This document shows positions 1,862 to 34,707 of a DNA stretch of 64,000 nt, piece by piece. Numbering within the stretch: the stretch's first letter is position 1; every line of letters starts with the position of its first letter. The notes under the pieces were generated by a model. It had not been told where the DNA came from, did no database searches, and saw nothing but the letters and a program-made list of their open reading frames with translations. The stretch is from Candidatus Kaiserbacteria bacterium (GTDB taxonomy: Bacteria > Patescibacteriota > Minisyncoccia > Phycocordibacterales > UBA2100). The position numbers and the translations under genes were made by a program. The DNA is taken from assembly GCA_016186695.1 (NCBI GenBank), contig JACPLC010000002.1:31335-95334 (forward strand). The letters run 5' to 3'.

Positions 1862-2941
1862 ATGCGTCTTCTTCTGGCGACAGGTCTCTATCCGCCTGAA
1901 ATCGGCGGGCCGGCGACGTATGCAAAATTGTTCGAGGAACAACTCCCGAACTACGGCATCGAAGTCTTGGTGCTTCCGTTTAGTCTCGTTCGACACATGC
2001 CGCCGATTGTGAGGCACGTGGCGTATGCGTGGCTGCTCGCACAGCGCATGCGCGATGTGGATCTCGTGCTCGTGCAAGACACCGTCTCCACAGGATTTCC
2101 CGTAGCCATCATAGCGGGGCTTGCGGGAAAGAAGTTTGTCGTTCGCGTACCGGGCGATTACGCATGGGAGCAGGGAACACAGCGGTTTGGCGTCAAAGAT
2201 TCTCTCGATGATTTCCAGAAGCGCTCGTACGGACTGGCCGTCGGATTTCTTCGCTCGATACAGCGATTCGTTGTGATTCGCGCACATCGTGTTATCGCGC
2301 CGAGCACATACCTTGCGAAGGTTATTTCTAGTTGGTCTCCGCGCATAAAGAGGATAGAAGTTATTTACAACGGCATCGAACTGTCGGAGGCGCTTCCGGT
2401 CGCGCGGCAGGAAAATCTCATTGTTTCCTCCGGCAGGCTCGTTCCGTGGAAAGGATTTGACGAGCTTATCGAAGTCGTCAGTGCTCATCCTGAATGGAAG
2501 CTCGAAATTCTCGGCGATGGGCCTCGACATCGCGAACTCAGGGATCAGATACAGAAGGCCGGATGTGAAGAGCGGATAACGCTTCGCGGGCGTGTCTCTC
2601 ACGCAGAGGCCCGCGAGGTCTTCGCAAGCGCGACAGTTTTTGTCCTAAACTCCCGATATGAAGGCCTCTCGCACACGCTTATCGAAGCGATGTCGGTCGG
2701 CACACCGGTCGTTGCGACACGTGCCGGGGGGAACCCCGAGGTTGTTCACGATGGAGAGGACGGCATACTTATTGCGGTCGGCGACAAAATGGCTCTAGAA
2801 GGCGCTCTTACGCATGTGCTGTCGGACGCCGGTCTGCGAAGACGCTTGGGTGCCGCCGCGTCCGGTCGGGCGAAAGACTTTTCAATTAATAAAACCGTCG
2901 AGGCAACCGCCTCGCTTTTGAAATCATGCGTGTCCTCCTAA
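1862..2941 (+). CDS. Glycosyltransferase family 4
   Basis: 359 aa; ..SSGRLVPWKGFDELIEV..NSRYEGLSHTLIEAMSVGTPVVATRAGGNPEVV (GT4 EX7E motif region). Confidence 0.8.
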   Translation: MRLLLATGLYPPEIGGPATYAKLFEEQLPNYGIEVLVLPFSLVRHMPPIVRHVAYAWLLAQRMRDVDLVLVQDTVSTGFPVAIIAGLAGKKFVVRVPGDYAWEQGTQRFGVKDSLDDFQKRSYGLAVGFLRSIQRFVVIRAHRVIAPSTYLAKVISSWSPRIKRIEVIYNGIELSEALPVARQENLIVSSGRLVPWKGFDELIEVVSAHPEWKLEILGDGPRHRELRDQIQKAGCEERITLRGRVSHAEAREVFASATVFVLNSRYEGLSHTLIEAMSVGTPVVATRAGGNPEVVHDGEDGILIAVGDKMALEGALTHVLSDAGLRRRLGAAASGRAKDFSINKTVEATASLLKSCVSS

Positions 2942-4011
2942 TAAGTACTGATAGATCGATATTCGCCGAGGAGAGTTCTACGCGGCGCCGACATCGCGCA
3001 TATGCAAAATATTTTGATGAGCTGCACGTATTATGTATTTCGGAAGGGACTCCATTCGCGGCTGTGCGAGATGGGAATCTCACGATCTACCCATCATCTC
3101 CACCAGCTCCTTTTTTTAGTAAGCTTTCACGGCGTATACGAGCCGCATACAGTATCGCCGGCATTATCAGCAGGTATGGCATTGATGTCGTATCGGTCCA
3201 AGATCCTTTTGAGACTGGAGTTGCCGCACTTATTGGCATGATGGGGTTGGGAGCAACATTTCACGTACAGGTGCATACTGATTTTCTCTCGCCCAACTAT
3301 CGTCGACTTTCACTTATAAATCGAATACGGGCACTTATTGCAGGTTTCGTGTTGCGAAGGGCTTCACGCATCCGGGTCGTCTCTGAGCACATCAAGGCAT
3401 CAATTCAGGAGCAATACCATCTCAACGTACCAATTTCAGCTCTGCCAATTTTTGCTGACGTAGAGCGGATACATAGAGCTTCTCCAGACGAAAAACTGCT
3501 CGTGCGATTTGCTGCGTACAAAACCAAACTGCTTGTCGTTTCGCGTCTCGAGCCCGAAAAAAATGTCGGCCTCGCGATACGCGCGTTCGCGCGATCAGCG
3601 CCGAGAGATGTATGTCTCATTATCGTTGGCAGCGGCAGTGAGAGATTATCATTGCAACGTTTTGCAAAACGCCTGAATGTCGCCGAGCGGGTCTTTTTTG
3701 ACGCTGATGCGGAAGCGGCACCGTACTTCAAGTTTGCGGATCTCGTGTTGGTTCCGTCGAAATACGAAGGATATGGGCTCGTTATCATTGAGGCGCTTGC
3801 GGCGGGGAAACCGGTGCTCGCAACTGATGTCGGCATTGCGCGTGAAGCGGGGGCGATCGTGACGACCGAAGAGAAGTTTGCTGATGCACTTGCGGAGTGG
3901 TTCAAGAGCGGCCCGCGGACGGGAGAGTTGAAGAACTGCCCCTACAAAAATTTTGACGAGTATGTGCGCGCATACTGTGATGACATAAAAAGATGCGCGA
4001 TCGCTCAATAA
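2926..4011 (+). CDS. Glycosyltransferase family 4
   Basis: 361 aa; ..LVVSRLEPEKNVGLAIRAF..PSKYEGYGLVIIEALAAGKPVLATDVG. Overlaps the previous GT by 16 bp, consistent with an operon. Confidence 0.75.
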   Translation: MRVLLISTDRSIFAEESSTRRRHRAYAKYFDELHVLCISEGTPFAAVRDGNLTIYPSSPPAPFFSKLSRRIRAAYSIAGIISRYGIDVVSVQDPFETGVAALIGMMGLGATFHVQVHTDFLSPNYRRLSLINRIRALIAGFVLRRASRIRVVSEHIKASIQEQYHLNVPISALPIFADVERIHRASPDEKLLVRFAAYKTKLLVVSRLEPEKNVGLAIRAFARSAPRDVCLIIVGSGSERLSLQRFAKRLNVAERVFFDADAEAAPYFKFADLVLVPSKYEGYGLVIIEALAAGKPVLATDVGIAREAGAIVTTEEKFADALAEWFKSGPRTGELKNCPYKNFDEYVRAYCDDIKRCAIAQ

Positions 4012-4032
4012 CTGCTACAATCCTATCCCTCT

Positions 4033-4923
4033 ATGGCTCAAAAAAGCAAGCAAAACAAGCCTCTTATTGGTTTTGTCGGGCAGGGCTATGTTGGCAAGAA
4101 CTACGCCGATGATTTCGAGAGTCGCGGGTATCCGGTTGTTAGGTATTCGCTCGAAGAGCCATACATCGAGAACAAGGGCCTCATAAAGGATTGCGATGTC
4201 GTTTTTATTGCCGTCCCGACGCCGTCGACGCCCAAAGGCTTCGACGCGAGCATTGTCGATAGCGCGCTTTCTTTGCTCGGAAAAGGGAAGATCGCTGTCA
4301 TCAAATCGACCATCGTGCCGGGGATGACCCGCCTCCTCCAGAAGAAGCATCCGAACATCGTCGTCATGTTCTGCCCCGAGTTCCTTTCGGTCGCGACCGC
4401 AGCGTACGATGTAGCGAACCCCTTTTTAAATGTTGTTGGTATTCCCTCGAACTCGCAAAAGCACAAGAAGGCGGCGCAGCTCGTGCTCGCAATCCTGAAA
4501 AAAGCACCGGAGAATCTCATGTGCACGAGCGAAGAAGCAGAACTCATCAAGTACGCGCACAACATCAGCGGCTACATGCAAATCCTCACTTTCAATCTCG
4601 TGTACGATCTCGCCGAGCATTTCAAGGCTGATTGGGGCCCGATACAGCGTGCCATTGAGAGCGATCCACTCATTTGCAACCGGTACGCAAATCCTGTGCA
4701 TAAGGGCGGGCGTGGCGCGGGCGGTTTCTGCTTCATCAAGGACATGGCGGCATTCGCGAGGCATTATGAAGAGACTGTTCGCGAGCCTGCCGGCTCCGCG
4801 CTTCTCGAAGCGGCGCAGCTGAAGAACGTCAGCTTGCTTGCTGCCTCGCACAAAGACCTTGATCTCTTGGAAGGAGTGTACGGGCAGAAGATGATGCAGC
4901 GGGCAAAGAAAGCCCGCCGATAG
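4033..4923 (+). CDS. UDP-glucose/GDP-mannose dehydrogenase family protein, short form lacking the C-terminal UDP-binding domain
   Basis: N-terminal Rossmann GFVGQGYVGKNYA and VFIAVPTP; central-domain motifs FCPEFLSVATAAYDVANP (cf. NPEFLREG) and catalytic-Cys motif GGFCFIKD (cf. GGSCFPKD). The ORF ends about 60 aa after the Cys, and the 80-bp downstream gap cannot encode the missing domain. Confidence 0.55.
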   Translation: MAQKSKQNKPLIGFVGQGYVGKNYADDFESRGYPVVRYSLEEPYIENKGLIKDCDVVFIAVPTPSTPKGFDASIVDSALSLLGKGKIAVIKSTIVPGMTRLLQKKHPNIVVMFCPEFLSVATAAYDVANPFLNVVGIPSNSQKHKKAAQLVLAILKKAPENLMCTSEEAELIKYAHNISGYMQILTFNLVYDLAEHFKADWGPIQRAIESDPLICNRYANPVHKGGRGAGGFCFIKDMAAFARHYEETVREPAGSALLEAAQLKNVSLLAASHKDLDLLEGVYGQKMMQRAKKARR

Positions 4924-5002
4924 CGGGCATGCGCCCCATTAGAGGCCGCGGTCGCTGATTGCCTTCGTTTTTTGTCCGCGTACGATACCCACATAGAGCT
5001 TT

Positions 5003-6070
5003 ATGGACAACGCAAGAAGTATGGGGCCGCGACCTACCTCTAACGGGGTAAATCTCCTCATCGTGACGCAGACGCTCGACCGCACCGATCCTGTTCTTGG
5101 GTTTTTTCACCGCTGGATTGAGGAACTATCGAAGCACTACGAACGCATTAACGTTATTTGTTTAAAAGAAGGAGCGCACTCGTTGCCGGAGAACGTGGAC
5201 GTGCATTCGCTCGGAAAAGAAGGGGGGGCGTCTCGGCTGAAATACGTTGCTCGTTTATTCCGCTACATTTGGAAATTGCGAAACGAGTACGACGCGGTTT
5301 TTGTGCACATGAATCAGGAGTATGTACTTCTTGCCGGCCTATTTTGGCGCTTAATCGGCAAACGCATATACCTATGGCGCAACCACTACGCCGGCTCGAT
5401 GATGACCAACCTTGCCGTCGCGCTCTCCACCAAAGTCTTCTGCACGTCGCGATTCTCCTATACCGCGAAATTCCGCAAGACCGTTCTGATGCCCGTTGGA
5501 ATCGACACGAACGTATTCAGGCCGCTGGACCTACCGAGGAAAGCGGGCTCGATACTTTCCCTCGGACGCATCGCGCCTTCGAAGCACGTCGATGTCTTGA
5601 TAGAAGCGGTTGATATCCTCAAACAAAAGTCGGTGGACATCTCGGCTCGCATTTTTGGCGATGCACTGCCAAAAGATGCCGACTATCATGCCAGCCTTTT
5701 GAAACGTATCGAGGAGCTGGGGCTCACAAATATACAGTTTCATGCCGGAGTTCCGAACTACGAGACGCCGAAGGTCTATAGCGCGCACGATATTTTTGTA
5801 AATTGCAGCGGGAGCGGCATGTACGACAAAACGATTTTTGAAGCAGCAGCGTGCGGAGCGCTTCCGCTTGCTTCGAGCCGCGATTTTTCCGAACTTGCTC
5901 CGGATTTTTCCTTCGCAGAAGGAAGTTCCGAGGAATTAGCCGCAGGGATCGAGAGGCTGATGTCAAAGTTAGATGGGGAACGGGAATCAGCGAGAGCCTC
6001 AATGCGCGCTCTCGCTGAACGTCATAGTCTGCGGGAGCTCGGAGTTCGACTCGGGAACGAGATTCGGTGA
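5003..6070 (+). CDS. Glycosyltransferase, GT-B fold (GT4-like)
   Basis: 355 aa; ..SLGRIAPSKHVDVLIEAVDIL..FVNCSGSGMYDKTIFEAAACGALPLAS. Confidence 0.55.
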   Translation: MDNARSMGPRPTSNGVNLLIVTQTLDRTDPVLGFFHRWIEELSKHYERINVICLKEGAHSLPENVDVHSLGKEGGASRLKYVARLFRYIWKLRNEYDAVFVHMNQEYVLLAGLFWRLIGKRIYLWRNHYAGSMMTNLAVALSTKVFCTSRFSYTAKFRKTVLMPVGIDTNVFRPLDLPRKAGSILSLGRIAPSKHVDVLIEAVDILKQKSVDISARIFGDALPKDADYHASLLKRIEELGLTNIQFHAGVPNYETPKVYSAHDIFVNCSGSGMYDKTIFEAAACGALPLASSRDFSELAPDFSFAEGSSEELAAGIERLMSKLDGERESARASMRALAERHSLRELGVRLGNEIR

Positions 6071-25030: not shown

Positions 25031-26052
25031 AGGTCTACCATGATCCGATTCGCTTTCCCTTCGCGCATCATCGTAATCGCATCATTTATCTTGTCGAGCG
25101 CCGTACGATGTGTGATGAGGAGAGATGTATCGAGGGTCTTCGCATACTTCTGTATGTACCGCCCGATGTCTCTCGCCGGCGCAAACTGGCCTCCCTGTGT
25201 CGCTTTTATCATTTTTCCTTCGCCGCCAAAAAGGTGGACCGCATTCATTATCTCCACACTTGCCCCCGGCTTCGGTTGGCCGACCAAAATGTAGCGTCCA
25301 CTGCCCGCAAGAAGGGGAAGCGTGTCCCGAATGCTCTCAGCGCTTCCTGATGTCTCGACGATAACGTTTACATCTTTGATCCCCGCTTTCCCGAGAGCTT
25401 CTTTGATATCTTCTTTTGCGCTATTGAAGAAGTGTGTCGCACCAAGTGACTTGGCCATCGTCTCTTTATCATGAATATCGAGAGCGATGATTGGATTTGC
25501 GCCGGCGAGTGATGCCGCTTTCGTGAGAGAGGCACCGAGCCCTCCCACGCCGACCACAAGCACGCTTTCGCCCCGCTGCACGTTCGCTTCGTTTTCGATC
25601 GTCGCAAGTGCCGTCGAGAGACCGCAACCGAGAAGAGCGCAAAAGTCGTTCGGCGTATCTTTAGGTGCTACCGTGAGCCTGTTTTCAGAGACGATCGAGT
25701 ATTCGCTCAAGGTCGTTACCTTGCCACTCGACATTTTTCTGCCTTTGTACATGTATGAGGGGAAATCTGATTCGATACCTTCGCCCTTCCGCCAATGCAT
25801 CACGACCTTGTCGCCTTTTTTTACGGTCGTAACACCCTCGCCGACCTTCTCCACGATGCCGCATCCCTCATGGCCGAGAAGATGAGGCACAAATTTTGCA
25901 TTGCCCTTGTAGCCGGCGATCTCCTGCAGCTGCGAGCCGCAAACCCCGCTCACGAGGATCTTTACGAGCACCTGACCATTGCCGAGCGGACCAAGCTCCA
26001 CTTCCGAAATAACAAGGGGAGCGTCAATAGTCTCCAACACGGCGGCTTTCAT
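25027..26052 (-). CDS. Zinc-dependent alcohol dehydrogenase (MDR family)
   Basis: GHEGCGIVEKVGEGV (catalytic Zn), CGSQLQE, NAD-binding GVGGLGASLTKAASLAG. Overlaps the E1alpha start. Confidence 0.8.
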   Translation of the reverse strand: MKAAVLETIDAPLVISEVELGPLGNGQVLVKILVSGVCGSQLQEIAGYKGNAKFVPHLLGHEGCGIVEKVGEGVTTVKKGDKVVMHWRKGEGIESDFPSYMYKGRKMSSGKVTTLSEYSIVSENRLTVAPKDTPNDFCALLGCGLSTALATIENEANVQRGESVLVVGVGGLGASLTKAASLAGANPIIALDIHDKETMAKSLGATHFFNSAKEDIKEALGKAGIKDVNVIVETSGSAESIRDTLPLLAGSGRYILVGQPKPGASVEIMNAVHLFGGEGKMIKATQGGQFAPARDIGRYIQKYAKTLDTSLLITHRTALDKINDAITMMREGKANRIMVDL

Positions 26053-26116
26053 CTGGAACTGTATACCACAAAATTGTTTGCTATGCCCTTACGGGAGAGG
26101 GGGAATTGTACCGTGG

Positions 26117-26860
26117 CTATTCTGCGGAGAATGATGCTGCGGCTGCTTCCTCGGCCGGAAGCATCACTGATTTCTGCGGAGTTCCTCGTATTTTGAAAGA
26201 GTCGTATTCCTCGGGCGTAAGCGTGAACTCGTACTCTTTTCCTTGCGCGTCGTAGCACTTGGTCCACGACTGCTCGCCGATCTCCTGCGCGGCTATCATG
26301 CCCGTGGTCGAAGCAACTGCCTCGCCGAGGAAGTATCCCTCCTCCATATGTCCGGAAGTGGTGTCGTACAGAGGGGCGGTATACGACATCAGACATTGCA
26401 GCTTCACTTCGACGAGCTCGTCGGCCGAGACAGATGGGGTTGTAGATGCTTCTGTTTGAACACTCGGTGAGCTTTCTGTTGTCACGTGTACAGATTCTGC
26501 CGGAGGCTCCGCAGTGGAAGTTGCAACAGCAGGAGATGTCGTCTCTGTTGTGCTCGCAGTGTCCGCGGGTGATGTGGTGGCCGTAGCCGATGAAGTTGTC
26601 ACGACAGATTCTTCAGGGGTTGACGTTGCCGCACCAAGTACGGTTGGTTCCGGAGATATTGCGGGATCAGCCGTCGCTTGTTCGGTCGTTGATACCGGCG
26701 CAGAATCTGCGGTATCGGCGGGAGTGGTAGTTCCTAACAGCAACTCGGTGGAACTTGCCACAACCTGCGCCAAAACAGGTCGAACCACAAAAAATCCAAG
26801 CACGACCAATGCAAGAATCGCGAAACCGAGCCCTATAGAAACTACAATGTTGCTTTTCAT
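26117..26860 (-). CDS. Membrane-anchored Thr/Ser/Pro/Ala-rich (mucin-like) protein with a C-terminal globular domain
   Basis: N-terminal signal-anchor MKSNIVVSIGLGFAILALVVLGFFVV. About 130 aa of low-complexity T/S/P/A/E (..TTSSATATTSPADTASTTETTSPAVATSTAEPP..). C-terminal ~90-aa domain with Cys (..LQCLMSYTAPLYD..WTKCYDAQGKEYEF..). Confidence 0.5.
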   Translation of the reverse strand: MKSNIVVSIGLGFAILALVVLGFFVVRPVLAQVVASSTELLLGTTTPADTADSAPVSTTEQATADPAISPEPTVLGAATSTPEESVVTTSSATATTSPADTASTTETTSPAVATSTAEPPAESVHVTTESSPSVQTEASTTPSVSADELVEVKLQCLMSYTAPLYDTTSGHMEEGYFLGEAVASTTGMIAAQEIGEQSWTKCYDAQGKEYEFTLTPEEYDSFKIRGTPQKSVMLPAEEAAAASFSAE

Positions 26861-26874
26861 GTGATTAATATTGC

Positions 26875-27351
26875 CTAATAAAATGCTAATAATGATGACG
26901 ATGTCGTAAGTCGGTTGGCGTAGTCCCAGAGGTACGTCGTCGTTTGTCCATCGGTTGTCTTTTGCGCGAGGTTGCCGTTCGCATCGTACATGTACGTCGT
27001 GGTACTCACTCCGTTTGAGATTTCAGTCACCGCGTGCGGATTCGCATATCCAGTACCTCCATATGTGTACGTGCTTGAGGCTGTTCCACTTCCGCTCCAG
27101 AGCGCCAGCATGCTCCCCAGCGTGTCGTACTCATACTGCTGCTTGTATGGCAGAGAGTCCGCTGCCGTCGTGGAAGCGGAGAGGAGACGGTTCAGGGCAT
27201 CATACGAGAACACCGTCGTCGCGCTTGAGCTTGCCGCGGCGGGATTTGCGAGCTGCGTGATGTTGCCGAAGGATTTGTACAAGCGTATAGCGCGATATGC
27301 TCGCCACATCACAGCAAGAGATTCGGGGATATTTTCAGTTGATGTTTTCAT
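26875..27351 (-). pseudogene. Rhs/YD-repeat core fragment: a displaced partial duplicate of the adjacent rhs gene, lacking the DPxGL motif and a toxin tip
   Basis: About 120 aa (..NITQLANPAAASSSATTVFSYDALNRLL.ASTTAADSLPYKQQYEYDTLGSMLALW..YANPHAVTEISNGVSTTTY.YD.NGNL.QKTTD..TTTYLWDYANRLT) are near-identical to main-gene residues encoded at about 28804-29280. Both ends diverge (N-term MKTSTENIPESLAVMWRAY.., C-term ..TSSSLLAFY*). Confidence 0.55.
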
Positions 27352-27387
27352 TGTTTAAAAGTATCTGACACCATTATCCAAACTCCA

Positions 27388-27603
27388 TTATCTGAATAAC
27401 CAAGTTAATAAGATAAATATGCCAATGATCAAATTCGTCAAAGCTTGGAAGCGTGCAAATCTTATCGTGCCTTCGGTAGTTTCGCTCTGTTTCCATAGGT
27501 TGTGTCTTACCCAGTTGAAGAATTTTTTACTAAAGAGTCCGAGGGCTCCAATAATTGTGAAAAGGAGTCCAGCCAGAAGAATGACGATATCTTGATTCAT
27601 CAT
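27388..27603 (-). CDS. Small two-TM membrane protein, candidate immunity protein for the Rhs C-terminal toxin
   Basis: 71 aa; MMNQDIVILLAGLLFTIIGALGLF..(TM1)..TNLIIGIFILLTWLF (TM2). Immediately downstream of the rhs stop on the same strand, 21-bp gap, AT-richer than the surroundings. Confidence 0.45.
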   Translation of the reverse strand: MMNQDIVILLAGLLFTIIGALGLFSKKFFNWVRHNLWKQSETTEGTIRFARFQALTNLIIGIFILLTWLFR

Positions 27604-27624
27604 TTTTAGTTGCTACGTTAATAA

Positions 27625-30600
27625 TTATGGGCCAGATTTCGACTTTCCGGCTGCTCGTTGAATCAGTGCGTTGAGCTGTGCGCGTATTACATTGATTCTT
27701 GCTTGTATGGCCGCGATTTGTGCCGCAAAAGAGTTACTGGAAACAGAGCCGCCTGAACTGGAACCTCCTTGAGCAGATTGCTGAGATTCAGATGGCCGGG
27801 TCGATTGTTGTTGTGCCGGTCGGTTGTTGCCGCTTCCACCTCCCGAAGAGCTAGGTGGTGGCGAGGATAACGGCGTGCCGGAGATAACTGCCTGTGCAAT
27901 TTGTTGGGGCGTGAGGTTTCCAGAATCAAGGTTGCGACATTCATGCTTTGCACAATATACATCTATTCCTGCAAGCGTAATGCCGGCAACATTTATAAGA
28001 GCGCCATATCCCGTCCACCCATAGAGATATGATGCGGCAGATCCCACAGCAAACAATGATAAATCGACATTTCTCTGTGCTTTATCGGCTTGTATTTCAG
28101 CAGTGCTTTCGTACGAAGAAACAACCCATGCATCATCCACTGATCTCGCTGTCTGCACACCGCTTACGCCTTCGAGAATCGGATAGAAGTAAGTTTCGAT
28201 TCCGGCTCTAGTAATTGTAAGTAGACCACTCGGATCCGAATTCGATATTGGGTTGTCTCCAGCATATGAATAACTATTTAACAGTTGCGGATTTGCGAGT
28301 AGCGTCCTGGCCGGTTTGCCCATGAGTCGCTCGATGTTTGGCGTTCCGATGGCAAGATGTAGAGGGTCTTGACTAAGGAATTGTCCGCGTTCTCCGTCAT
28401 AGTACCTAGCGTTTAGGTATGACAGACCACTTCCTTCGTCGAAGAATTGTCCAATGAATTCTCTGTTGGAGATATCTGTGCCGGAGTCGATTCTTGTACT
28501 GCCATACGGATAGTAGTCGAGCGTCTGCATCACGGCAGTGTTGTTTGCATTGGAGACGATGTTCGTGCTCCCCAGATGATCTGGATGTATATACCGCACT
28601 TCCGCGGTTCCCGTTGCACTGCCGTTCGTGAAGGCCTGATCTATCGTCGAAAGCAACGTATCACTGCTGAATATATACTCGGTCGTGGTCGCGTAGTTAG
28701 TCCCACTTCTCGTGCTTGACGCCACCGAGTACCATTTACTCGCATACGTCGTTGTTGCCGTCGTCGACGCTATCTGATACACCCTCGCCCCGAAGGCGTC
28801 GTAGCCGTAGGTTGTGGTCGAATTGTTGACGCCGAGTGCTGTCAGCCTATTCGCATAGTCCCACAGATACGTTGTCGTCACATTGTCTGTGGTCTTTTGA
28901 GAAAGGTTTCCATTATTGTCATATGAATACGTTGTCGTTGAGACGCCATTTGAAATTTCAGTTACAGCATGGGGATTGGCATAGCTCGTGCCAGAGTAGG
29001 CATACGTGCTGGAGGCCGTCCCGTTCCAGAGAGCCAACATACTCCCGAGCGTGTCGTATTCATACTGCTGCTTGTATGGCAGAGAGTCCGCGGCGGTCGT
29101 CGATGCTTGCAGCAACCTATTCAACGCATCGTACGAGAACACCGTCGTCGCGCTTGAGCTCGCCGCAGCAGGATTCGCGAGCTGTGTGATGTTGCCCGCG
29201 GGATCGTACGTGTATGAGAAATCCTGGACGTTGGAGCTGTTCGCCAATGTTTTTAGGTTCGTCAATCTGTACAGGGCATCGGCGTTGTAGGTGCGCGTGG
29301 TCGAGGCGCCGCTTCCGAAGACTGTCGTGATGGATTGACTCGTCGGCGCATACGTGAGGCTGCTCACGATGTCGCTGAACGATCCGCCTGAAGGTTTGCG
29401 CTGTATTCTGCTCGGCAATCCGGCGTTGTTGTAGCCCACGGTGACGGCTGTGCTGTTCGGGTATGTCCACGAGGTAACATTGCCCTGCCGGTCATACGAG
29501 TATTGCATGTTGTATGCATTGTTTAAGATCGTGGTTGTTGCGGAAAGAATGCGGCCGAGTATGTCGTAGCTATTCGTCGACGTCGCGGACGTCGATGAGG
29601 CGGAGCAAAGGTAGCCGATGCCGTTGGTACAGCTGTCATAGACGAGGGTGACTTCGGTGCCGGAGGCTCCCGTGTAGTTCTCGGTCAGCATGCGGTTGAG
29701 GGCGTCGTATGTGCGGTTCACTGTTTGAGCCTTCGGATCAGTTTGGGACGTGAGATTGCCCTGATGATCGTAGGTGTACGACCAGATGCCGAAGGTCGTG
29801 TCGGTGGCGTTGTGCAGGTCTTGCGCCGAGAGACGCCTGCCGAGGCCATCGTACGTGAAGCCGCGGACATTGCTCCTGCTGTCGGTCGTCGTTGCGAGAT
29901 TATTCTGCACGTCGTACGAATGCGTCGTCGTGGCGAAGACCGGTACCGTTCTCACCTGATTGCCGACACGCGCTTCCACCGCTACCTCGATCCAGTCGCT
30001 GTTCGTGGTATGTGTCCAACCGAGCGATTGAGCGCTGGATGTTGACGTTTTCAGAACGCTCGCGCCATGAGAGAAGTTGTTGGAGCATTGGTTGGTCAGT
30101 TGTTGTATTTGAGGCGAGTTTGCAGTCAGAGTCTGGCTCAAGTTGTACCAGAGATTGTCATCCACGATCGAATTATCACTTTGTGTGGTAATCGAGATTG
30201 AAGGATCGCCCGTTGTGCCGGTATTGAACTTCATTGCCCCGATTGGGTTCACGGTGTCCGTTCCGGTGTACGAGACGGCCGAAACGTACCCACCGCTATT
30301 CGGAGAAAACGTGACAACAACGTTGTTTGAGCCGCTCGTGGGATTAGTTAGGTACCACGTTCCGACTCCTCCTGTTGAAGTGGCGAATGTCATGTCGACG
30401 CCGGCGTACTTCACGGTTGATACAAAGGGAGAATCTATCTGAACAAGTAGCAGCGTCGACGTGGCGCTGACAGTCTTTGAGAGCTCTACAGAGGCCACCG
30501 ATGAGCACATGACAGTATTAGCGGGGCCGTTCGTCCCGGTTTCGATCGATATCGAGGTACCCACCGCTGTCGTCGTCGCGGCGTACAACCCCCGTTCGAC

Positions 30601-33600
30601 GACAGTCGCGAGATTGCCGAATGCGTCATACCAATACACTTTTGTGTTGCCGTTCGGATCGGTCGCCGTCGTTGTCCATTTCGCGTACGAGTTGGTTTTG
30701 GTGCCGACGGCGTTTGCTTCAGACGTGAGACGCTTTAGTGGGTCGTAGAGGTAGTTCGTATAGAGAGCCGTGGTAGCAGTTGGCGTCGTATACGCCGTGC
30801 TAGAGGATGAGTATGGAAGAGTGGACGAAGCGAGAAGTCCCACCTGACTATACTTTCGATCTGTGACGAGGAAGATATTGGAGTCGGGCGATTCTTTGCG
30901 CTCTTGGAACAACCGATTGAATCCATCGAAATACTGGTATGTGTCCACTGTGTTTCCCGGAAAGAGCCAATCGCTTCGCTGAATCGAGCTGGGAGTCGTC
31001 GTGCTGTCGATGTACGTGTAGACAGTGGTCGTCGCGTACGTTGAAGGCGTCGATGTCGAAGACACGTCTACTTCTTTGAGACGCCCGACTCCATCGAATA
31101 CGTTTTTCATCAGTGACTCGTTCGGGTCGTTCTTCCATCGTACTTTTCCGTTTGCATAGTTGTATAGAAGTTGCGTCTTCTGGAGTAGCGCATTCGTGGA
31201 CGTGGCAACGTACAAGTTGTTTGCATCGTAGACATACGACGTTGCGTTGCCATTGCGATCCGTCGAGGTTGCGACAAGGCCGTACGAATTATGCGTCTTG
31301 GTGGAGCTCGCATACATGGTGCCGCTGATCCAGTCTTCCTGCTTCGTGTTGTTGCCGACGTTTACCGACCCGAACGCGAGCGAGTCGTAGTAGAACTTTT
31401 GATCCGTGCTCGTCGCACCGTTGTAGTCGAGGAGCGTCTTTTGGGTAGGTACACTCATGTTCACTGTGCTGCTCGCTGCGTATGATATGTTCGTCGTGCG
31501 TTTGTCCGTTCCACTGTCGGTGAATTCGGCACTGTCCGTATTGCCGCTGACCTCTCCGTACTCGATAGTTTGGATCAGGTCATTCGTAGTCGAGGAGTAA
31601 TGGTAGTCGATCGCTTTGTCGCGGTGGGTGCCGTCCGAGGCATAATCCAGCGTCACCTGCCTACCGAGCCCTATGAACGTGCTATCGCCGTGCTCAACCG
31701 TGTCCCACCGATAGAGCGCGCGCTGTTTGAGATTGTTGGAAGTATCGGAAACGTCTTTGCGCGTAGGTCGGCCGATGCGGGCGAGCGAGTTCTGCCCGTA
31801 GTGTGTCGTGACGATCGAATCGGGATTCGTTACTGTCACCGGTGAAAAGCCGGCGAACCGCCTGTCGCGCACCGTCGTGTTGTACCAGTGCCCGTTCGAG
31901 TATGAATACGTCGTTGTCGCATAGTTGCCGAGACCATCATGGGTCACTGTCGTACTTGCGGCAAGCACTCTGATCGCCGACCCGGGATTCCCGGCCATCT
32001 TGTATGCGATCGCGATGCCGCCGCCTTTGGGATTCGTAACGTTCGTAATCACATCCTGTTGCATTTGCCCGTTGCCATAGAAGTTCACGAACTCGTTGTA
32101 TGCGATCGTGCTCGTTCCCGCGTTGCAGGTTGCTATGTACGCGGGCAATGTGTACCTCGTGCTTGTCGCCCAACCGCTGCCGGTATTGAGGTATACGGCC
32201 TTTACGTCCGCGACTTCGGTGCCGACGCATCCTCCGCCTGATGCGCCGAGGTACGAGCGGACGAGATCCGTGAGACCGTCACCATTCATATCCATGAAGC
32301 GGATACCACGGTCGTAGTAATTGCCGTTCGATAGGTACGTTGTTGATGTGGCGAATGTCCAGTGCGAATCGGGGACGCTGTTCCACCCGCTGCCATTGTT
32401 CAGTAACACATACGTACTGCTTGCGGCGGAATAGACCCAGTCGTCGAGGTTGTCGCCGTTGATATCAACGAGTTGCGACGCGGTTTCCGTGGGCGCAGTC
32501 GAGGGGAACGATTTCGCTGCGGGAAATACCGTTACCGTGCGGTCCCACGCGGATCCGTTGCCGAGGTACGTGGACGTGGCGAGTTCATTGGTGAGCGCCG
32601 TGAGGTAGTCGGGCAAGCCATCGCCGTTCACGTCTCCGAAGAGGCCGCCAGTGAGGTAGAGGCCGCCACTCGTCTTTTTCGCGAAGGTGGGAATGTTTCC
32701 CGTGTAGCTCGTTGACGTTGCCGACCAGCCATACGTGTCAGTGGTAGTCGAATATTGGTTGTTGTAGATGGCGTAATCAGAGGTGCCGGCAGAATCGTCG
32801 ATCCATCCACGCACCGCGTCTGCTTTTCCGTCGCCGTTGATGTCGAGATAGCGCACGCCACGCTCCAGAGGCACCTGATTCGGATATCCCGTACTTGCCC
32901 AGTACTCGGGAGGCGCGTGGCTCGCGTCCGGCACGGCAATAGCGCTTGCCTCGTTGTCGTGCCACATGAAGCCATTGCCCGTCCCGGGCATGAAGAGATT
33001 CACGTCGTTGATCCCGTTGCCGTCGGTGTCTGCGACTGCGTAGTCTGCTCCGTCCACGTTCTGTATCGCCGGTCCGAAGTATTGGGTGGATGAGCTCGCA
33101 TAACTGAATGTCATCGCAGGGAGCGTAACGAGTGTATTGTTGTCGTCGTAGCCCTGCTGCACGATGCTTGTGAGGAGAGAACGAAGGCTGTTGTTTCCAG
33201 TCCCATACCCCAGGAGATACTTTCTGACTGTCGATCCGTTCACTGAAGCATCGATTTCATAAATTCTTTTAGTTGTGGTCGCGGAAAATCCGGATGCGTA
33301 GCTGATGCGAGCGTCGGGCCGCGTCGTCGTTGCAAACGTGATCGTGAACGGCCCGTCGGTCGAGCCCTTACCTGTGTATGTGATCGTATCGGGGTATAGA
33401 GTATTATTATCTCTTAAATATGTGTACTCGATGTAGTTGTCGTTTGTGTCGCGGATCTCTTGGAGCATCCAGCGGTAGGTGTTCGTCGACGTGCCGGTGC
33501 CCGTGTCGTACATCCTGCCGGAATCATCGGAGCCGAACGTGTATCGCGTTCCTCTTTTGTCGTACATCGTCCACGAGGTGGTGGCGAAGGTGTACACGTT

Positions 33601-34707
33601 GAACGACCCGTCATCGACCTTTGCGAGGTACGTACCGGCACTTCCCGAGCTCGCGCTTGGCGCCTTCACCTCTACCGCTATCTCGATCCAAGCGCCGTCA
33701 CCAGCCGAATGTGTCCATCCGAGCGATTGAAGGCCGGAGGATGTCGTCTTCAAGACGCTCGCGCCATGGGAGAAGTTGCCCGAGCAGCTGTCGGTGAGCT
33801 GCTGTATCTGGGGCGAGTTCGCAGTCAATGTTTGAGTCCCATCGTAAAAGACTTGGTCGTCCACTGCCGAGTAGTTGCTCTCCGTCGTGATCAGTACCGA
33901 CGTATTGCCGGTGGAGCCTGTGTTGTACGCCATCGCGCCGATCGGATCCGACGTGTCGGTTCCAGTGTACGAGACGGCAGAAACGTACCCGCCGCTGCTT
34001 TGCGAAAGGTTGACAACCAGATCATTCGTTCCACTCGTCGGGTTTGCGAGATACCATGTCTCAACTCCGCCAGTTGAAGTGGCACGCGTCGTGTTTACAC
34101 CGGCGTACGTCACGCTGGAAATGAAAGGGGTGTCGATGTGCGCAATTAGAAGAGTCGAGGTTGAACTTACAGACTTTGATAGTGAAAATGGGTCCGATGA
34201 CGGCGTGCATCGCATAACTTTCGTCGGTCCATTTGAGTTGGTTTCGATCGAGATGGTTGCCGTTGTCGTTGCTCCGCTTGACGTTGAGCTTGCAACGAGC
34301 TCGCCATCAATCGACGAGGTGAAGTATGGAATCGTGCCGTATAGTTCCTGCGAACCAATCTTGTTGAGGCGTTCGATGTATGGAATGGAAAGCTCCCACC
34401 CGTAGCCGACGATTCCATCTCTCGTGCGCTGGCTGTTGTAATCGAGTGCGATATCCGGTTGGAGGCCGTTACGGCCGGGAAGAATGTCGAGAGGGACGCG
34501 CTGCGTAAATGCTCCGGTGGACCCGTCTATCTTCGGATCCTCCGTTACTGCTGAAAATACCGACGCATTCGGGACTGTTGGCGATCCGTCGCCGAATGCC
34601 GCGAATGCGAGACCAGCCGGTGATATCGAAAAAAGGGAAACAACAAAAACCGCCAGTACGCGGGTGATGCGCCGCAATTCCGCGCCAACGAGATTTCGGC
34701 TTTTCAT
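27625..34707 (-). CDS. Giant Rhs-family polymorphic toxin with TcB-TcC-fusion-like architecture (SpvB-like N-domain, FG-GAP/VCBS repeats, YD/RHS repeats, RHS core, variable C-terminal toxin)
   Basis: About 2360 aa from MKSRNLVG.. (ATG 34707, signal peptide follows; the maximal ORF runs to 34776). SpvB-like ..VPLDILPGRNGLQPDIALDYNSQRTRDGIVGYGWELSIPYIER. FG-GAP/VCBS motifs (DTDGNGINDV, LDINGDGKADAV, GDVNGDGLPDYL, VDINGDNLDDWV, MDMNGDGLTDLV). Dozens of YD repeats (YxYDxxGNL..). Core end ..YYDGERGQFLSQDPLHL..(41 aa)..DPSGL, followed by a 198-aa tail. Confidence 0.85.
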   Translation of the reverse strand: MKSRNLVGAELRRITRVLAVFVVSLFSISPAGLAFAAFGDGSPTVPNASVFSAVTEDPKIDGSTGAFTQRVPLDILPGRNGLQPDIALDYNSQRTRDGIVGYGWELSIPYIERLNKIGSQELYGTIPYFTSSIDGELVASSTSSGATTTATISIETNSNGPTKVMRCTPSSDPFSLSKSVSSTSTLLIAHIDTPFISSVTYAGVNTTRATSTGGVETWYLANPTSGTNDLVVNLSQSSGGYVSAVSYTGTDTSDPIGAMAYNTGSTGNTSVLITTESNYSAVDDQVFYDGTQTLTANSPQIQQLTDSCSGNFSHGASVLKTTSSGLQSLGWTHSAGDGAWIEIAVEVKAPSASSGSAGTYLAKVDDGSFNVYTFATTSWTMYDKRGTRYTFGSDDSGRMYDTGTGTSTNTYRWMLQEIRDTNDNYIEYTYLRDNNTLYPDTITYTGKGSTDGPFTITFATTTRPDARISYASGFSATTTKRIYEIDASVNGSTVRKYLLGYGTGNNSLRSLLTSIVQQGYDDNNTLVTLPAMTFSYASSSTQYFGPAIQNVDGADYAVADTDGNGINDVNLFMPGTGNGFMWHDNEASAIAVPDASHAPPEYWASTGYPNQVPLERGVRYLDINGDGKADAVRGWIDDSAGTSDYAIYNNQYSTTTDTYGWSATSTSYTGNIPTFAKKTSGGLYLTGGLFGDVNGDGLPDYLTALTNELATSTYLGNGSAWDRTVTVFPAAKSFPSTAPTETASQLVDINGDNLDDWVYSAASSTYVLLNNGSGWNSVPDSHWTFATSTTYLSNGNYYDRGIRFMDMNGDGLTDLVRSYLGASGGGCVGTEVADVKAVYLNTGSGWATSTRYTLPAYIATCNAGTSTIAYNEFVNFYGNGQMQQDVITNVTNPKGGGIAIAYKMAGNPGSAIRVLAASTTVTHDGLGNYATTTYSYSNGHWYNTTVRDRRFAGFSPVTVTNPDSIVTTHYGQNSLARIGRPTRKDVSDTSNNLKQRALYRWDTVEHGDSTFIGLGRQVTLDYASDGTHRDKAIDYHYSSTTNDLIQTIEYGEVSGNTDSAEFTDSGTDKRTTNISYAASSTVNMSVPTQKTLLDYNGATSTDQKFYYDSLAFGSVNVGNNTKQEDWISGTMYASSTKTHNSYGLVATSTDRNGNATSYVYDANNLYVATSTNALLQKTQLLYNYANGKVRWKNDPNESLMKNVFDGVGRLKEVDVSSTSTPSTYATTTVYTYIDSTTTPSSIQRSDWLFPGNTVDTYQYFDGFNRLFQERKESPDSNIFLVTDRKYSQVGLLASSTLPYSSSSTAYTTPTATTALYTNYLYDPLKRLTSEANAVGTKTNSYAKWTTTATDPNGNTKVYWYDAFGNLATVVERGLYAATTTAVGTSISIETGTNGPANTVMCSSVASVELSKTVSATSTLLLVQIDSPFVSTVKYAGVDMTFATSTGGVGTWYLTNPTSGSNNVVVTFSPNSGGYVSAVSYTGTDTVNPIGAMKFNTGTTGDPSISITTQSDNSIVDDNLWYNLSQTLTANSPQIQQLTNQCSNNFSHGASVLKTSTSSAQSLGWTHTTNSDWIEVAVEARVGNQVRTVPVFATTTHSYDVQNNLATTTDSRSNVRGFTYDGLGRRLSAQDLHNATDTTFGIWSYTYDHQGNLTSQTDPKAQTVNRTYDALNRMLTENYTGASGTEVTLVYDSCTNGIGYLCSASSTSATSTNSYDILGRILSATTTILNNAYNMQYSYDRQGNVTSWTYPNSTAVTVGYNNAGLPSRIQRKPSGGSFSDIVSSLTYAPTSQSITTVFGSGASTTRTYNADALYRLTNLKTLANSSNVQDFSYTYDPAGNITQLANPAAASSSATTVFSYDALNRLLQASTTAADSLPYKQQYEYDTLGSMLALWNGTASSTYAYSGTSYANPHAVTEISNGVSTTTYSYDNNGNLSQKTTDNVTTTYLWDYANRLTALGVNNSTTTYGYDAFGARVYQIASTTATTTYASKWYSVASSTRSGTNYATTTEYIFSSDTLLSTIDQAFTNGSATGTAEVRYIHPDHLGSTNIVSNANNTAVMQTLDYYPYGSTRIDSGTDISNREFIGQFFDEGSGLSYLNARYYDGERGQFLSQDPLHLAIGTPNIERLMGKPARTLLANPQLLNSYSYAGDNPISNSDPSGLLTITRAGIETYFYPILEGVSGVQTARSVDDAWVVSSYESTAEIQADKAQRNVDLSLFAVGSAASYLYGWTGYGALINVAGITLAGIDVYCAKHECRNLDSGNLTPQQIAQAVISGTPLSSPPPSSSGGGSGNNRPAQQQSTRPSESQQSAQGGSSSGGSVSSNSFAAQIAAIQARINVIRAQLNALIQRAAGKSKSGP
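28804..29280 (-). repeat. Segment of the main rhs gene that is duplicated as the displaced fragment at 26875-27351
   Basis: Shared protein stretch on the sense strand. Shared antisense ORF peptides (..LPSVSYSYCCLYGRESAAVV.., ..RIHTAACMAESP..) appear at both loci with a 1929-bp offset. Confidence 0.55.
29953..30555 (-). repeat. Intragenic duplicated ~200-aa domain, copy 2 (inserted within the RHS-repeat region)
   Basis: ..ISIETGTNGPANTVMCSSVASVELSKTVSATSTLLLVQIDSPFVSTVKYAGV..SGGYVSAVSYTGTDTVNPIGAM..TLTANSPQIQQLTNQCSNNFSHGASVLKT..SLGWTH..WIEVAVEA. About 65% identical to copy 1, offset 3708 bp. Confidence 0.6.
33661..34263 (-). repeat. Intragenic duplicated ~200-aa domain, copy 1 (rhs N-terminal region)
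   Basis: ..ISIETNSNGPTKVMRCTPSSDPFSLSKSVSSTSTLLIAHIDTPFISSVTYAGV..SGGYVSAVSYTGTDTSDPIGAM..TLTANSPQIQQLTDSCSGNFSHGASVLKT..SLGWTH..WIEIAVEV. Mirrored by homologous antisense ORFs at 33875-34405 and 30143-30442. Confidence 0.6.

Follow-up and report, generated by a model that had tools for sequence, protein, structure and literature searches.

The rhs locus described here lies in a 64,000-nucleotide (nt) stretch of contig JACPLC010000002.1 of Candidatus Kaiserbacteria bacterium (assembly GCA_016186695.1, contig positions 31,335–95,334), which we call the window and whose own numbering is used below. On the minus strand an rhs gene for a protein of 2383 amino acids (aa) is followed by a 71-aa gene with two predicted transmembrane (TM) helices, an open reading frame (ORF) of 158 aa and a 247-aa gene, here called G247 (Table 1). 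The 158-aa ORF, the subject of this study, is present as stated in a preliminary description of the locus and is deposited at NCBI as ‘RHS repeat protein [Candidatus Kaiserbacteria bacterium]’ (P0001). An exact-record look-up gave an entry neither for the 158-aa ORF nor for the 71-aa ORF and retrieved, for the latter, a 70-aa version starting at the second Met. The preliminary description had regarded the 158-aa ORF as a non-toxic footprint of recombination and not as a functional orphan toxin. Our results support this central claim. They make it probable that an orphan rhs-CT/immunity cassette (CT, C-terminal toxin tip) once stood here and that the ORF is its 5′ stump, left over from the shuffling of toxin tips.

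Table 1. Features of the rhs locus, in window coordinates.
Feature	Position	Strand	Remarks
Main rhs gene, 2383 aa	27625..34776	−	SpvB, FG-GAP, RHS repeats, DPSGL, C-terminal tip
Main-gene copy of the repeated core segment, aa 1857–1979	28840..29208	−	about 200 aa upstream of DPSGL
32-nt exact repeat, main-gene copy	29060..29091	−	k=31 contigs break there
Putative immunity gene, 71 aa, two predicted TM helices	27388..27603	−	21 nt past the rhs stop
Fragment ORF, 158 aa	26875..27351	−	36 nt past the 71-aa gene
Residues of the 158-aa product			MKTSTENIPESL...; C-terminal tail ...TSSSLLAFY
Orphan leader, 28 codons (MKTSTENIPESLAVMWRAYRAIRLYKSF)	27268..27351	−	
5′ half of the core-homologous segment (NITQ...LALW)	27097..27264	−	
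32-nt exact repeat, fragment copy	27131..27162	−	L006–L008 start at 27160
3′ half of the core-homologous segment (...ANRL)	26908..27096	−	
Deletion joint, frameshifted tail TSSSLLAFY*	26875..26907	−	
Conserved upstream motif of G247 (ATCATTATTAGCATTTTATTAGGCAATATTAATCAC; consensus ATAATTATYAGCATTTATTAGCTAAC)	26861..26898	−	all five G247 copies examined
G247, 247 aa	26117..26860	−	14 nt past the fragment ORF; marks the right edge of the orphan slot

The main Rhs protein has a signal-peptide-like N-terminus, and Pfam recognizes an SpvB domain as well as FG-GAP and RHS repeats. Its core ends with NPISNSDPSGL (DPSGL at aa 2181) and is followed by a tip of about 200 aa which includes a hydrophobic, Gly-rich stretch. 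The toxin tips of the window and of the two related loci introduced below as L001 and L003 have no Pfam match. With its shell domains, the DPxGL motif, a variable tip and a small putative immunity gene, the main gene fits, as judged from its sequence, the layout of an Rhs polymorphic toxin with its immunity gene. By its position, the 71-aa protein is a putative immunity protein. It is homologous to the 78-aa 2-TM protein of L003 (36% identity, E 8e-19), and in that locus small 2-TM homologs of it precede or come after Rhs tips.

The 158-aa ORF repeats one particular segment of the main gene. A repeat search revealed a direct repeat of 27092–27280 and 29021–29209 (83% identical, spacing 1929 nt), and aa 25–149 of the ORF (26905–27279) align to the main protein with 110 of 123 residues identical and one insertion of two codons. 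When the 158-aa product was searched against the whole window by tblastn, a single site gave an E-value of 2e-62 and all other YD repeats gave E-values of at least 0.002, so that the similarity is that of a specific copy and not the generic likeness of YD repeats. Low-complexity similarity, by which the preliminary description could have been refuted, is therefore not the source of the match. The near-identity over about 120 aa that had been claimed there holds for the protein, whereas the DNA is only about 75% identical. Likewise, the copy had been placed at the right distance upstream, but the limits given for it (28804–29280) are those of the ORF shifted by 1929 nt and the homologous stretch is shorter (Table 1).

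The differences between both copies fall on the three codon positions as 18/9/68, and the comparison gives a nonsynonymous divergence (dN) of 0.11 with a saturated synonymous divergence (dS). The longest perfect match is the 32-nt repeat. However, the divergence is not uniform. The 5′ half of the core-homologous segment (the first 56 codons) is 85% identical to the main gene in nucleotides and 98% in amino acids, and 32 of its synonymous codons are identical where 24.6 are expected (P=0.004), that is, it lies above the saturation level. In the 3′ half (about 61 codons) the identities are 66% and 85%, and the 15 identical synonymous codons compare to 16.4 expected (P=0.35), which is synonymous saturation. 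These expectations derive from a within-sequence permutation that keeps the codon composition of each copy. Because the 3′ half is saturated, the fragment neither arose from the present main gene by recent local duplication nor was it recently displaced from it. Most of the divergence would have built up while both copies were under strong selection at the protein level. Thus the past duplication or recombination which had been proposed for the locus can be upheld as a footprint of recombination but not as a recent event that copied or displaced part of the main gene as it is now.

Against a null built from the codon usage of the main gene, identical synonymous codons were slightly less frequent between adjacent copies than predicted (P 0.10, 0.07, 0.02). 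Recoding against homology, that is, selection against recombination, was considered as a cause and rejected, as for the pair in the window the effect is gone under the permutation with own composition. The mirrored antisense ORFs that had been noticed at both copies do exist (26955–27260 and 26972–27358 at the fragment, 28836–29189 and 29006–29290 at the main copy). Similar plus-strand ORFs are found throughout the rhs gene, and since the substitutions are biased to the third positions of the sense frame, we regard these ORFs as by-products of the rhs coding sequence without meaning of their own.

A recent local duplication, or an assembly artefact such as a repeat collapse or a chimera, might be suspected from the common orientation of both copies, their distance of 1929 nt and their protein identity of 89–91%. 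Apart from the low DNA identity and the saturated 3′ half, which contradict a recent duplication, the copies are too divergent to collapse, their longest exact match being 32 nt. In addition, contigs of five other sequencing runs (SRR12113430, SRR12113424, SRR12113420, SRR12113383 and SRR12113385), which were assembled at k=31 by Logan and retrieved by exact-protein look-up, are 100% identical to the window. Three of these contigs (L006–L008) begin within the fragment copy of the 32-nt repeat and continue through the 3′ part of the stump into G247 and beyond, up to 11 kb. Another one, L010, spans 29089 to 27133 exactly and comprises the main copy of the 32-mer, the tip, the 2-TM gene, the leader and the fragment copy of the 32-mer. 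Since both junctions of the fragment were assembled independently and the contigs break at the two-copy 32-nt repeat as predicted for k=31, the arrangement is not an assembly artefact, and the repeat collapse that had been named as a possible refutation fails as well. Finally, the same junction of immunity gene, leader and core recurs in an independent JGI metagenome. A duplication of this kind or an artefact is thus already contradicted and can hardly be credited any longer.

What the ORF represents becomes clear from related loci. Look-ups and one metagenome scan yielded three informative relatives, L001 (12 kb) and L003 (7 kb), both from JGI 3300025323, and L013. The main rhs gene of L001 is 81% identical in DNA to that of the window up to window position 28502 and has a different tip beyond. 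It is followed by a DUF4279 gene and, after 36 nt as in the window, by orphan 1, which starts with MRTAVDIESELAAVWRAYIAALTRDAF-GNITQ... and, after a frameshift, continues with the core end, its own tip, a gene for a 194-aa membrane protein and a copy of G247. Further downstream are orphan 2 with an Ntox44 tip, a DUF5412 gene and a second copy of G247. G247 is thus found twice in L001 (8233–8982 and 11234–11977), once behind each orphan cassette, which means that the unit duplicated or inserted there included the downstream gene and not just the toxin and immunity genes.

L003 starts with the 3′ end of an rhs gene including its tip, followed by a 79-aa 2-TM gene and by orphan A (leader MKLRANIDPSFSEMWHAYRAARSYDPF), which ends early at about position 2372. 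Just past this truncation and inside the orphan array lies a gene for an IS200-like Y1 transposase (2412–3080; PF01797, E 3e-14), and downstream of it a 78-aa 2-TM gene without a toxin tip. Sixteen nt further orphan B begins (3569–5221, leader MKAIVNIDSELTEMWSAYHAARSRGPI), which has a full core end and a tip and is followed by a 232-aa gene and by G247. In L013, whose G247 is 55% identical, an 80-aa 2-TM gene comes after the SpvB and RHS genes and borders directly on G247, so that the slot is empty. As full cassettes that start in the same way fill the slot between the immunity gene and G247 in L001 and L003, the ORF of the window occupies a defined position, and the earlier statement that it sits where orphan rhs-CT/immunity pairs are found proved correct, with the same leader in each case.

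The divergent ends that had been noticed are indeed unlike the main gene, but they have an origin of their own: the 5′ end is a conserved orphan leader, and at the 3′ end a deletion joint leads into the upstream motif of G247. The first about 17 codons of the leader are not Rhs-like, and the last about 10 codons form a degenerate YD motif. The leader joins the Rhs core at ...GNITQ, which is the entry point in all orphans. When a profile of four such N-termini was compared with 1.84 billion representative proteins, only four proteins matched from position 1, always with their own N-terminus, and all long Rhs proteins matched only from position ~17–23, in the YD-like part. The leader is thus specific to the orphan cassettes of this Kaiserbacteria group, shared by at least four of them and absent from all full-length Rhs proteins, so that the 5′ junction would be old and inherited, a refinement of the earlier description.

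The four leaders are homologous in DNA (z 5–18 over shuffles). They evolve fast, with a dN of 0.33–0.72 over 26 aligned codons compared to 0.08–0.19 in the adjacent core, and their pairwise differences show little third-position bias (means of 0.40/0.36/0.54 for the three codon positions). The four orphans have kept the start codon and share a few leader residues (M1, I, W, A, Y, A). We infer that the leader is a fossil junction which was formed once in an ancestor and spread when recombination within the core shuffled the cassettes; it drifts because it was never part of an expressed full-length gene.

Other sources of the leader were considered. An illegitimate join with the 5′ region of G247 was rejected, as the similarity of the four leaders to five G247 starts does not rise above shuffles (z ≤ 3.2, mostly about 0). 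Decayed or frameshifted core accounts for just the last about 10 codons: in two relatives only the last about 15 nt of the leader DNA are core-like, and the window DNA upstream of NITQ is unlike the main core (z 0.1). A relation of the leader of L001 orphan 2 to a frameshifted version of leader 1 was not demonstrable (z 1.5).

At the 3′ end the core homology runs about 10 nt past ANRLT with a loss of 2 nt, which results in the frameshifted tail, and ends at ...CGTCA. A few nt further begins a motif (the consensus in Table 1, then about 10 nt, then ATG) which lies upstream of all five G247 copies including that of the distant L013, and the stop codon of the fragment falls within this motif. The motif includes a tandem TTATTAGC(A/T) element. 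Compared to the relatives, the remaining core, the tip and the immunity gene are missing, that is about 1.9 kb relative to L003 orphan B and about 1.7 kb relative to L001 orphan 1. Possible microhomology at the joint amounts to no more than a few nt (TCAA..AATT), a weak feature on which we do not rely. By parsimony, the stump would have arisen by deletion and not by insertion of a stump.

G247 itself (deposited as hypothetical protein HYW59_01780) has an N-terminal TM or signal segment, a linker rich in Ser, Thr, Ala and Pro and a conserved C-terminal domain of about 90 aa with two Cys. It terminates the rhs locus in every relative found. As G247 is present without an orphan in L013 and lies downstream of the own immunity genes of the cassettes in L001 and L003, it is not a cassette-specific immunity gene. 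Only 13 homologs were found among 5.8 billion proteins, none of them with a Pfam match, and a search of the genome contigs for G247 gave no matches.

By its location the ORF corresponds to an orphan module, lying behind the 71-aa gene on the same strand as the main rhs gene and having core homology to it. However, the parts which make a module toxic are missing. The pattern DP.G[LI] does not match the fragment, and Pfam finds no toxin domain in it, as the preliminary description had stated; past ANRLT there is just the 9-aa frameshifted tail and thus no toxin domain after a DPxGL motif. Neither is there a cognate immunity gene, the next gene being G247. The only Pfam match of the fragment is RHS_repeat (PF05593, E 1.4e-9, 38.5 bits at a cut-off of 22, aa 122–150); for P0001 a match to PF25023 (TEN_YD-shell) is precomputed. 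Moreover, a complete β-cocoon shell is not encoded, as just about 125 Rhs-like residues are present compared to the 2383-aa main protein.

Thus, we suggest the following course of events. The locus of this Kaiserbacteria group consists of the main rhs gene with its tip, its immunity gene, zero to several orphan cassettes and G247. A cassette normally opens with the leader, enters the core at GNITQ, covers the last about 330 core residues up to the DPxG cleavage motif and ends with a tip and an immunity gene of its own. From the cassette of the window, all that lies past ...ANRLT (plus about 10 nt) would have been deleted, which corresponds to about 1.7–1.9 kb in the relatives, and the deletion would have fused the stump to the left edge of the G247 upstream motif. 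Having no Rhs shell, no protease motif and no toxin, the stump is most likely an inert pseudogene remnant, maybe co-transcribed with its neighbours. Its mosaic structure could record tip exchange: a homology arm of about 170 nt followed by tip-linked core with an independent and much older divergence. Overall, this agrees with the models that have been published for orphan and displaced Rhs tips (PMC2935791, PMC3967940).

The mosaic boundary is also seen when main genes are compared. In a sliding comparison the main genes of the window and L001 are 80–90% identical up to window position ~29100, 64–73% from ~29040 to ~28500, and about 50% in the unrelated tips. This step coincides with the mosaic boundary of the comparison between main gene and fragment (~29040–29100), a breakpoint which is based on two main genes and five orphans. 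Because of this coincidence the tip-linked travelling unit seems to include the last about 180 core residues. The about 170 nt that precede the step, retained behind the leader in all orphans, are probably a former homology arm for tip exchange with main genes.

It could be argued that the stump is still kept for this purpose, namely as a right-hand homology arm or landing pad, with the direct repeats bracketing tip and immunity gene for the excision of a circle or the replacement of a cassette. The direct repeats do flank these two genes, the 5′ half retains similarity at the DNA level together with the 32-nt perfect match, and the breakpoint coincides with the step between the main genes. 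One and the same leader occurs behind immunity genes of different kinds (2-TM, DUF4279), the k=31 assembly graph X-R-Y-R-Z would also allow a circle Y-R, and a circular-intermediate model has been described (Jackson et al. 2009, PMC2935791). On the other hand, the arm of the window is now 85% identical with a single 32-nt perfect run and is therefore a poor recombination substrate for RecA compared to the equivalent arm that works in Salmonella, which has 522 bp at 95% identity (PMC3967940). In the window, an exchange between both copies would only give a truncated, toxin-less rhs gene and the loss of the immunity gene. Furthermore, no evidence of selection retaining the stump was found, and L013 does without it. 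We therefore consider a landing pad unlikely, though it is the least improbable of the alternatives.

The ORF could also be a genuine small gene, that is, a 158-aa YD-repeat protein translated from the ATG of the leader and having a function of its own. It is intact, starts with ATG, matches RHS_repeat, and its start codon and some leader residues are conserved in four orphans; internal expression of Rhs tips is possible in Salmonella (PMC7043789). The ORF has no Shine–Dalgarno (SD) sequence, which is uninformative: a GGAG, GAGG or AGGA motif at −20 to −4 is found in just 3 of 53 genes (starts of the 53 long ORFs of the whole window), and as SD sites are so rare in this genome, translation of the ORF cannot be judged from such signals. 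Its N-terminus is not signal-peptide-like. A scan for promoters and terminators gave no site on the minus strand between the genes, which speaks against a separate gene, and an Rfam scan of 25500–29500 gave no match. A functional protein is unlikely because the leader is under little coding constraint, because the tail is a 2-nt frameshift reading into the upstream motif of the neighbour, and because about 125 residues cannot close an Rhs cocoon. In addition, the truncated architecture was not found in proteins outside this population. A small gene of this kind is therefore quite improbable.

Somewhat less improbable, yet still quite unlikely, is a wider reading in which the leader-bearing cassettes are self-starting, autonomously translated orphan Rhs modules of a small Kaiserbacteria clade, the stump being kept either as a translated product or as a landing pad through which new cassettes of tip and immunity gene could be captured between the two diverged direct repeats. 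Such cassettes may be likened to the internally expressed Rhs toxin–antitoxin pairs of Salmonella.

Three observations and one property of the data weigh against our preferred reading as an inert cassette stump. The ORF is intact over 149 codons from an ATG and its core was under strong purifying selection, which on sequence grounds would also suit a functional small protein. We found no relative in which this particular cassette is still complete, and the deletion is deduced from paralogous and orthologous cassettes which are only 72–75% identical in DNA. The core is about 75% identical in DNA, whereas the core fragments of displaced tips in enterobacteria are identical or about 95% identical to the attached core (PMC2935791, PMC3967940), so that the picture of a recent displacement does not apply. 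Lastly, the related loci are metagenome contigs of mixed populations, and mosaics among them could be chimeras. A case in point is P0051, a 291-aa protein of the representative library in which the leader is that of L001 orphan 1, the core that of L001 orphan 2 and the truncated 3′ end that of L003 orphan A (...RKYIGQFADTSDNG); it may reflect either real cassette shuffling or a chimera of metagenome assembly.

The best described counterparts are the orphan rhs-CT/rhsI pairs of enterobacteria, for example, STM0292 of Salmonella Typhimurium LT2 (Poole et al. 2011, PMC3150448; Koskiniemi et al. 2014, PMC3967940). Here as there, the main rhs gene and its immunity gene are followed, in like orientation, by a gene fragment which starts with a core piece homologous to the main gene and has no apparent export signal, and L001 and L003 hold intact cassettes of this type. 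The copy in the window differs by the loss of the DPxGL motif, the toxin tip and the immunity gene, and its core homology is much lower than the 95% over 522 bp in Salmonella (about 75% of the DNA, 85% in the best 170 nt). It also begins with an ATG and a Kaiserbacteria-specific leader, whereas enterobacterial orphans ‘usually lack translation initiation signals’ (PMC3967940). Finally, the host belongs to the candidate phyla radiation (CPR) and its main protein has a Sec-type N-terminus; genes of a type VI secretion system were not noticed in the window, though no search for them was made.

The dissociated rhs tips described by Jackson et al. (2009; PMC2935791) form arrays of core fragment and tip behind one intact gene, with the evolution of core and tip being decoupled, which resembles the present situation. 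According to their circular-intermediate model, a fixed 5′ junction is spread by homologous recombination, and this would explain the single leader and the single entry point at GNITQ. On the contrary, attached and dissociated core fragments within a locus are identical in their study, whereas the copies in the window are saturated at synonymous sites over half of their length and the fragment has no tip. The stump therefore cannot be counted among dissociated tips in the sense of that study, whose core fragments are identical or nearly so to the attached core.

Arrays of orphan cdiA-CT/cdiI and mafB-CT cassettes are organized in a comparable way, as silent 3′ cassettes downstream of an expressed gene, each starting with recombination-capable homology to the main gene. 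These cassettes belong to a different family of delivery proteins and, unlike the stump, retain toxin and immunity genes; the cdiA orphans are treated in PMC3150448.

For the annotation it follows that the deposited ‘RHS repeat protein’ is most plausibly a pseudogene stump, to be left out of counts of toxins and orphan effectors. In a wider sense, the orphan-cassette architecture and the tip shuffling known from Proteobacteria operate also in an ultra-small bacterium of the CPR, at its Rhs locus. There is a fixed slot here between the immunity gene and a conserved downstream gene, and a single inherited leader junction which is common to cassettes with different toxins. The fast-evolving leader beside a conserved core illustrates that orphan cores are kept ‘protein-fit’ even while they are silent.

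A second class of short Rhs ORFs was encountered in ENA metagenome contigs (P0007, P0009–P0025), which start with ...YNS(L/F)MRAIVxxxxGxYSYAGTGYANPHAV and enter the core about 60 residues further in than the leader class; several of them are frameshifted. We considered whether those of P0009–P0025 share the leader of the window, which they do not: they are solitary stumps with a different core entry point. Their contexts are unrelated, one being located next to genes for an E1-E2 ATPase and SecDF (L002, 1998–2282) and another near DDE transposases and a Replic_Relax gene (L005, 10001–10669).

Some observations concern the main gene. The tip of the window (27625–28275) weakly resembles the tip which lies ahead of the 79-aa 2-TM gene in L003 (503–1240), with 27% identity over 112 aa and a pairwise E of 0.003. 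Each has hydrophobic stretches rich in Gly, and the small 2-TM proteins encoded behind the two tips are homologous. From these features the two tips may belong to one family of membrane-acting tips with membrane immunity proteins. In addition, the main Rhs protein holds two copies of a domain of about 200 aa whose DNA is 71% identical (33709–34008 and 30010–30309). With wider bounds, one copy extends over ~aa 170–375 in the N-terminal part past the start of SpvB and the other over ~aa 1400–1600 inside the repeat region. The domain is also present in the main gene of L001 (2733–3153 compared to window 34178–33758). Its only Pfam match is a weak one to the discoidin-like DDR1-2 (E 0.014), and by its sequence it may be a duplicated binding domain.

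With regard to gene expression, many genes of the window have TATAAT-like boxes (TACAAT, TATAGT, TATACT, TATAAT) about 8–15 nt from the start codon. The position of these boxes so close to the start suggests that leaderless mRNAs, or mRNAs with very short leaders, may be used in this Kaiserbacteria genome.

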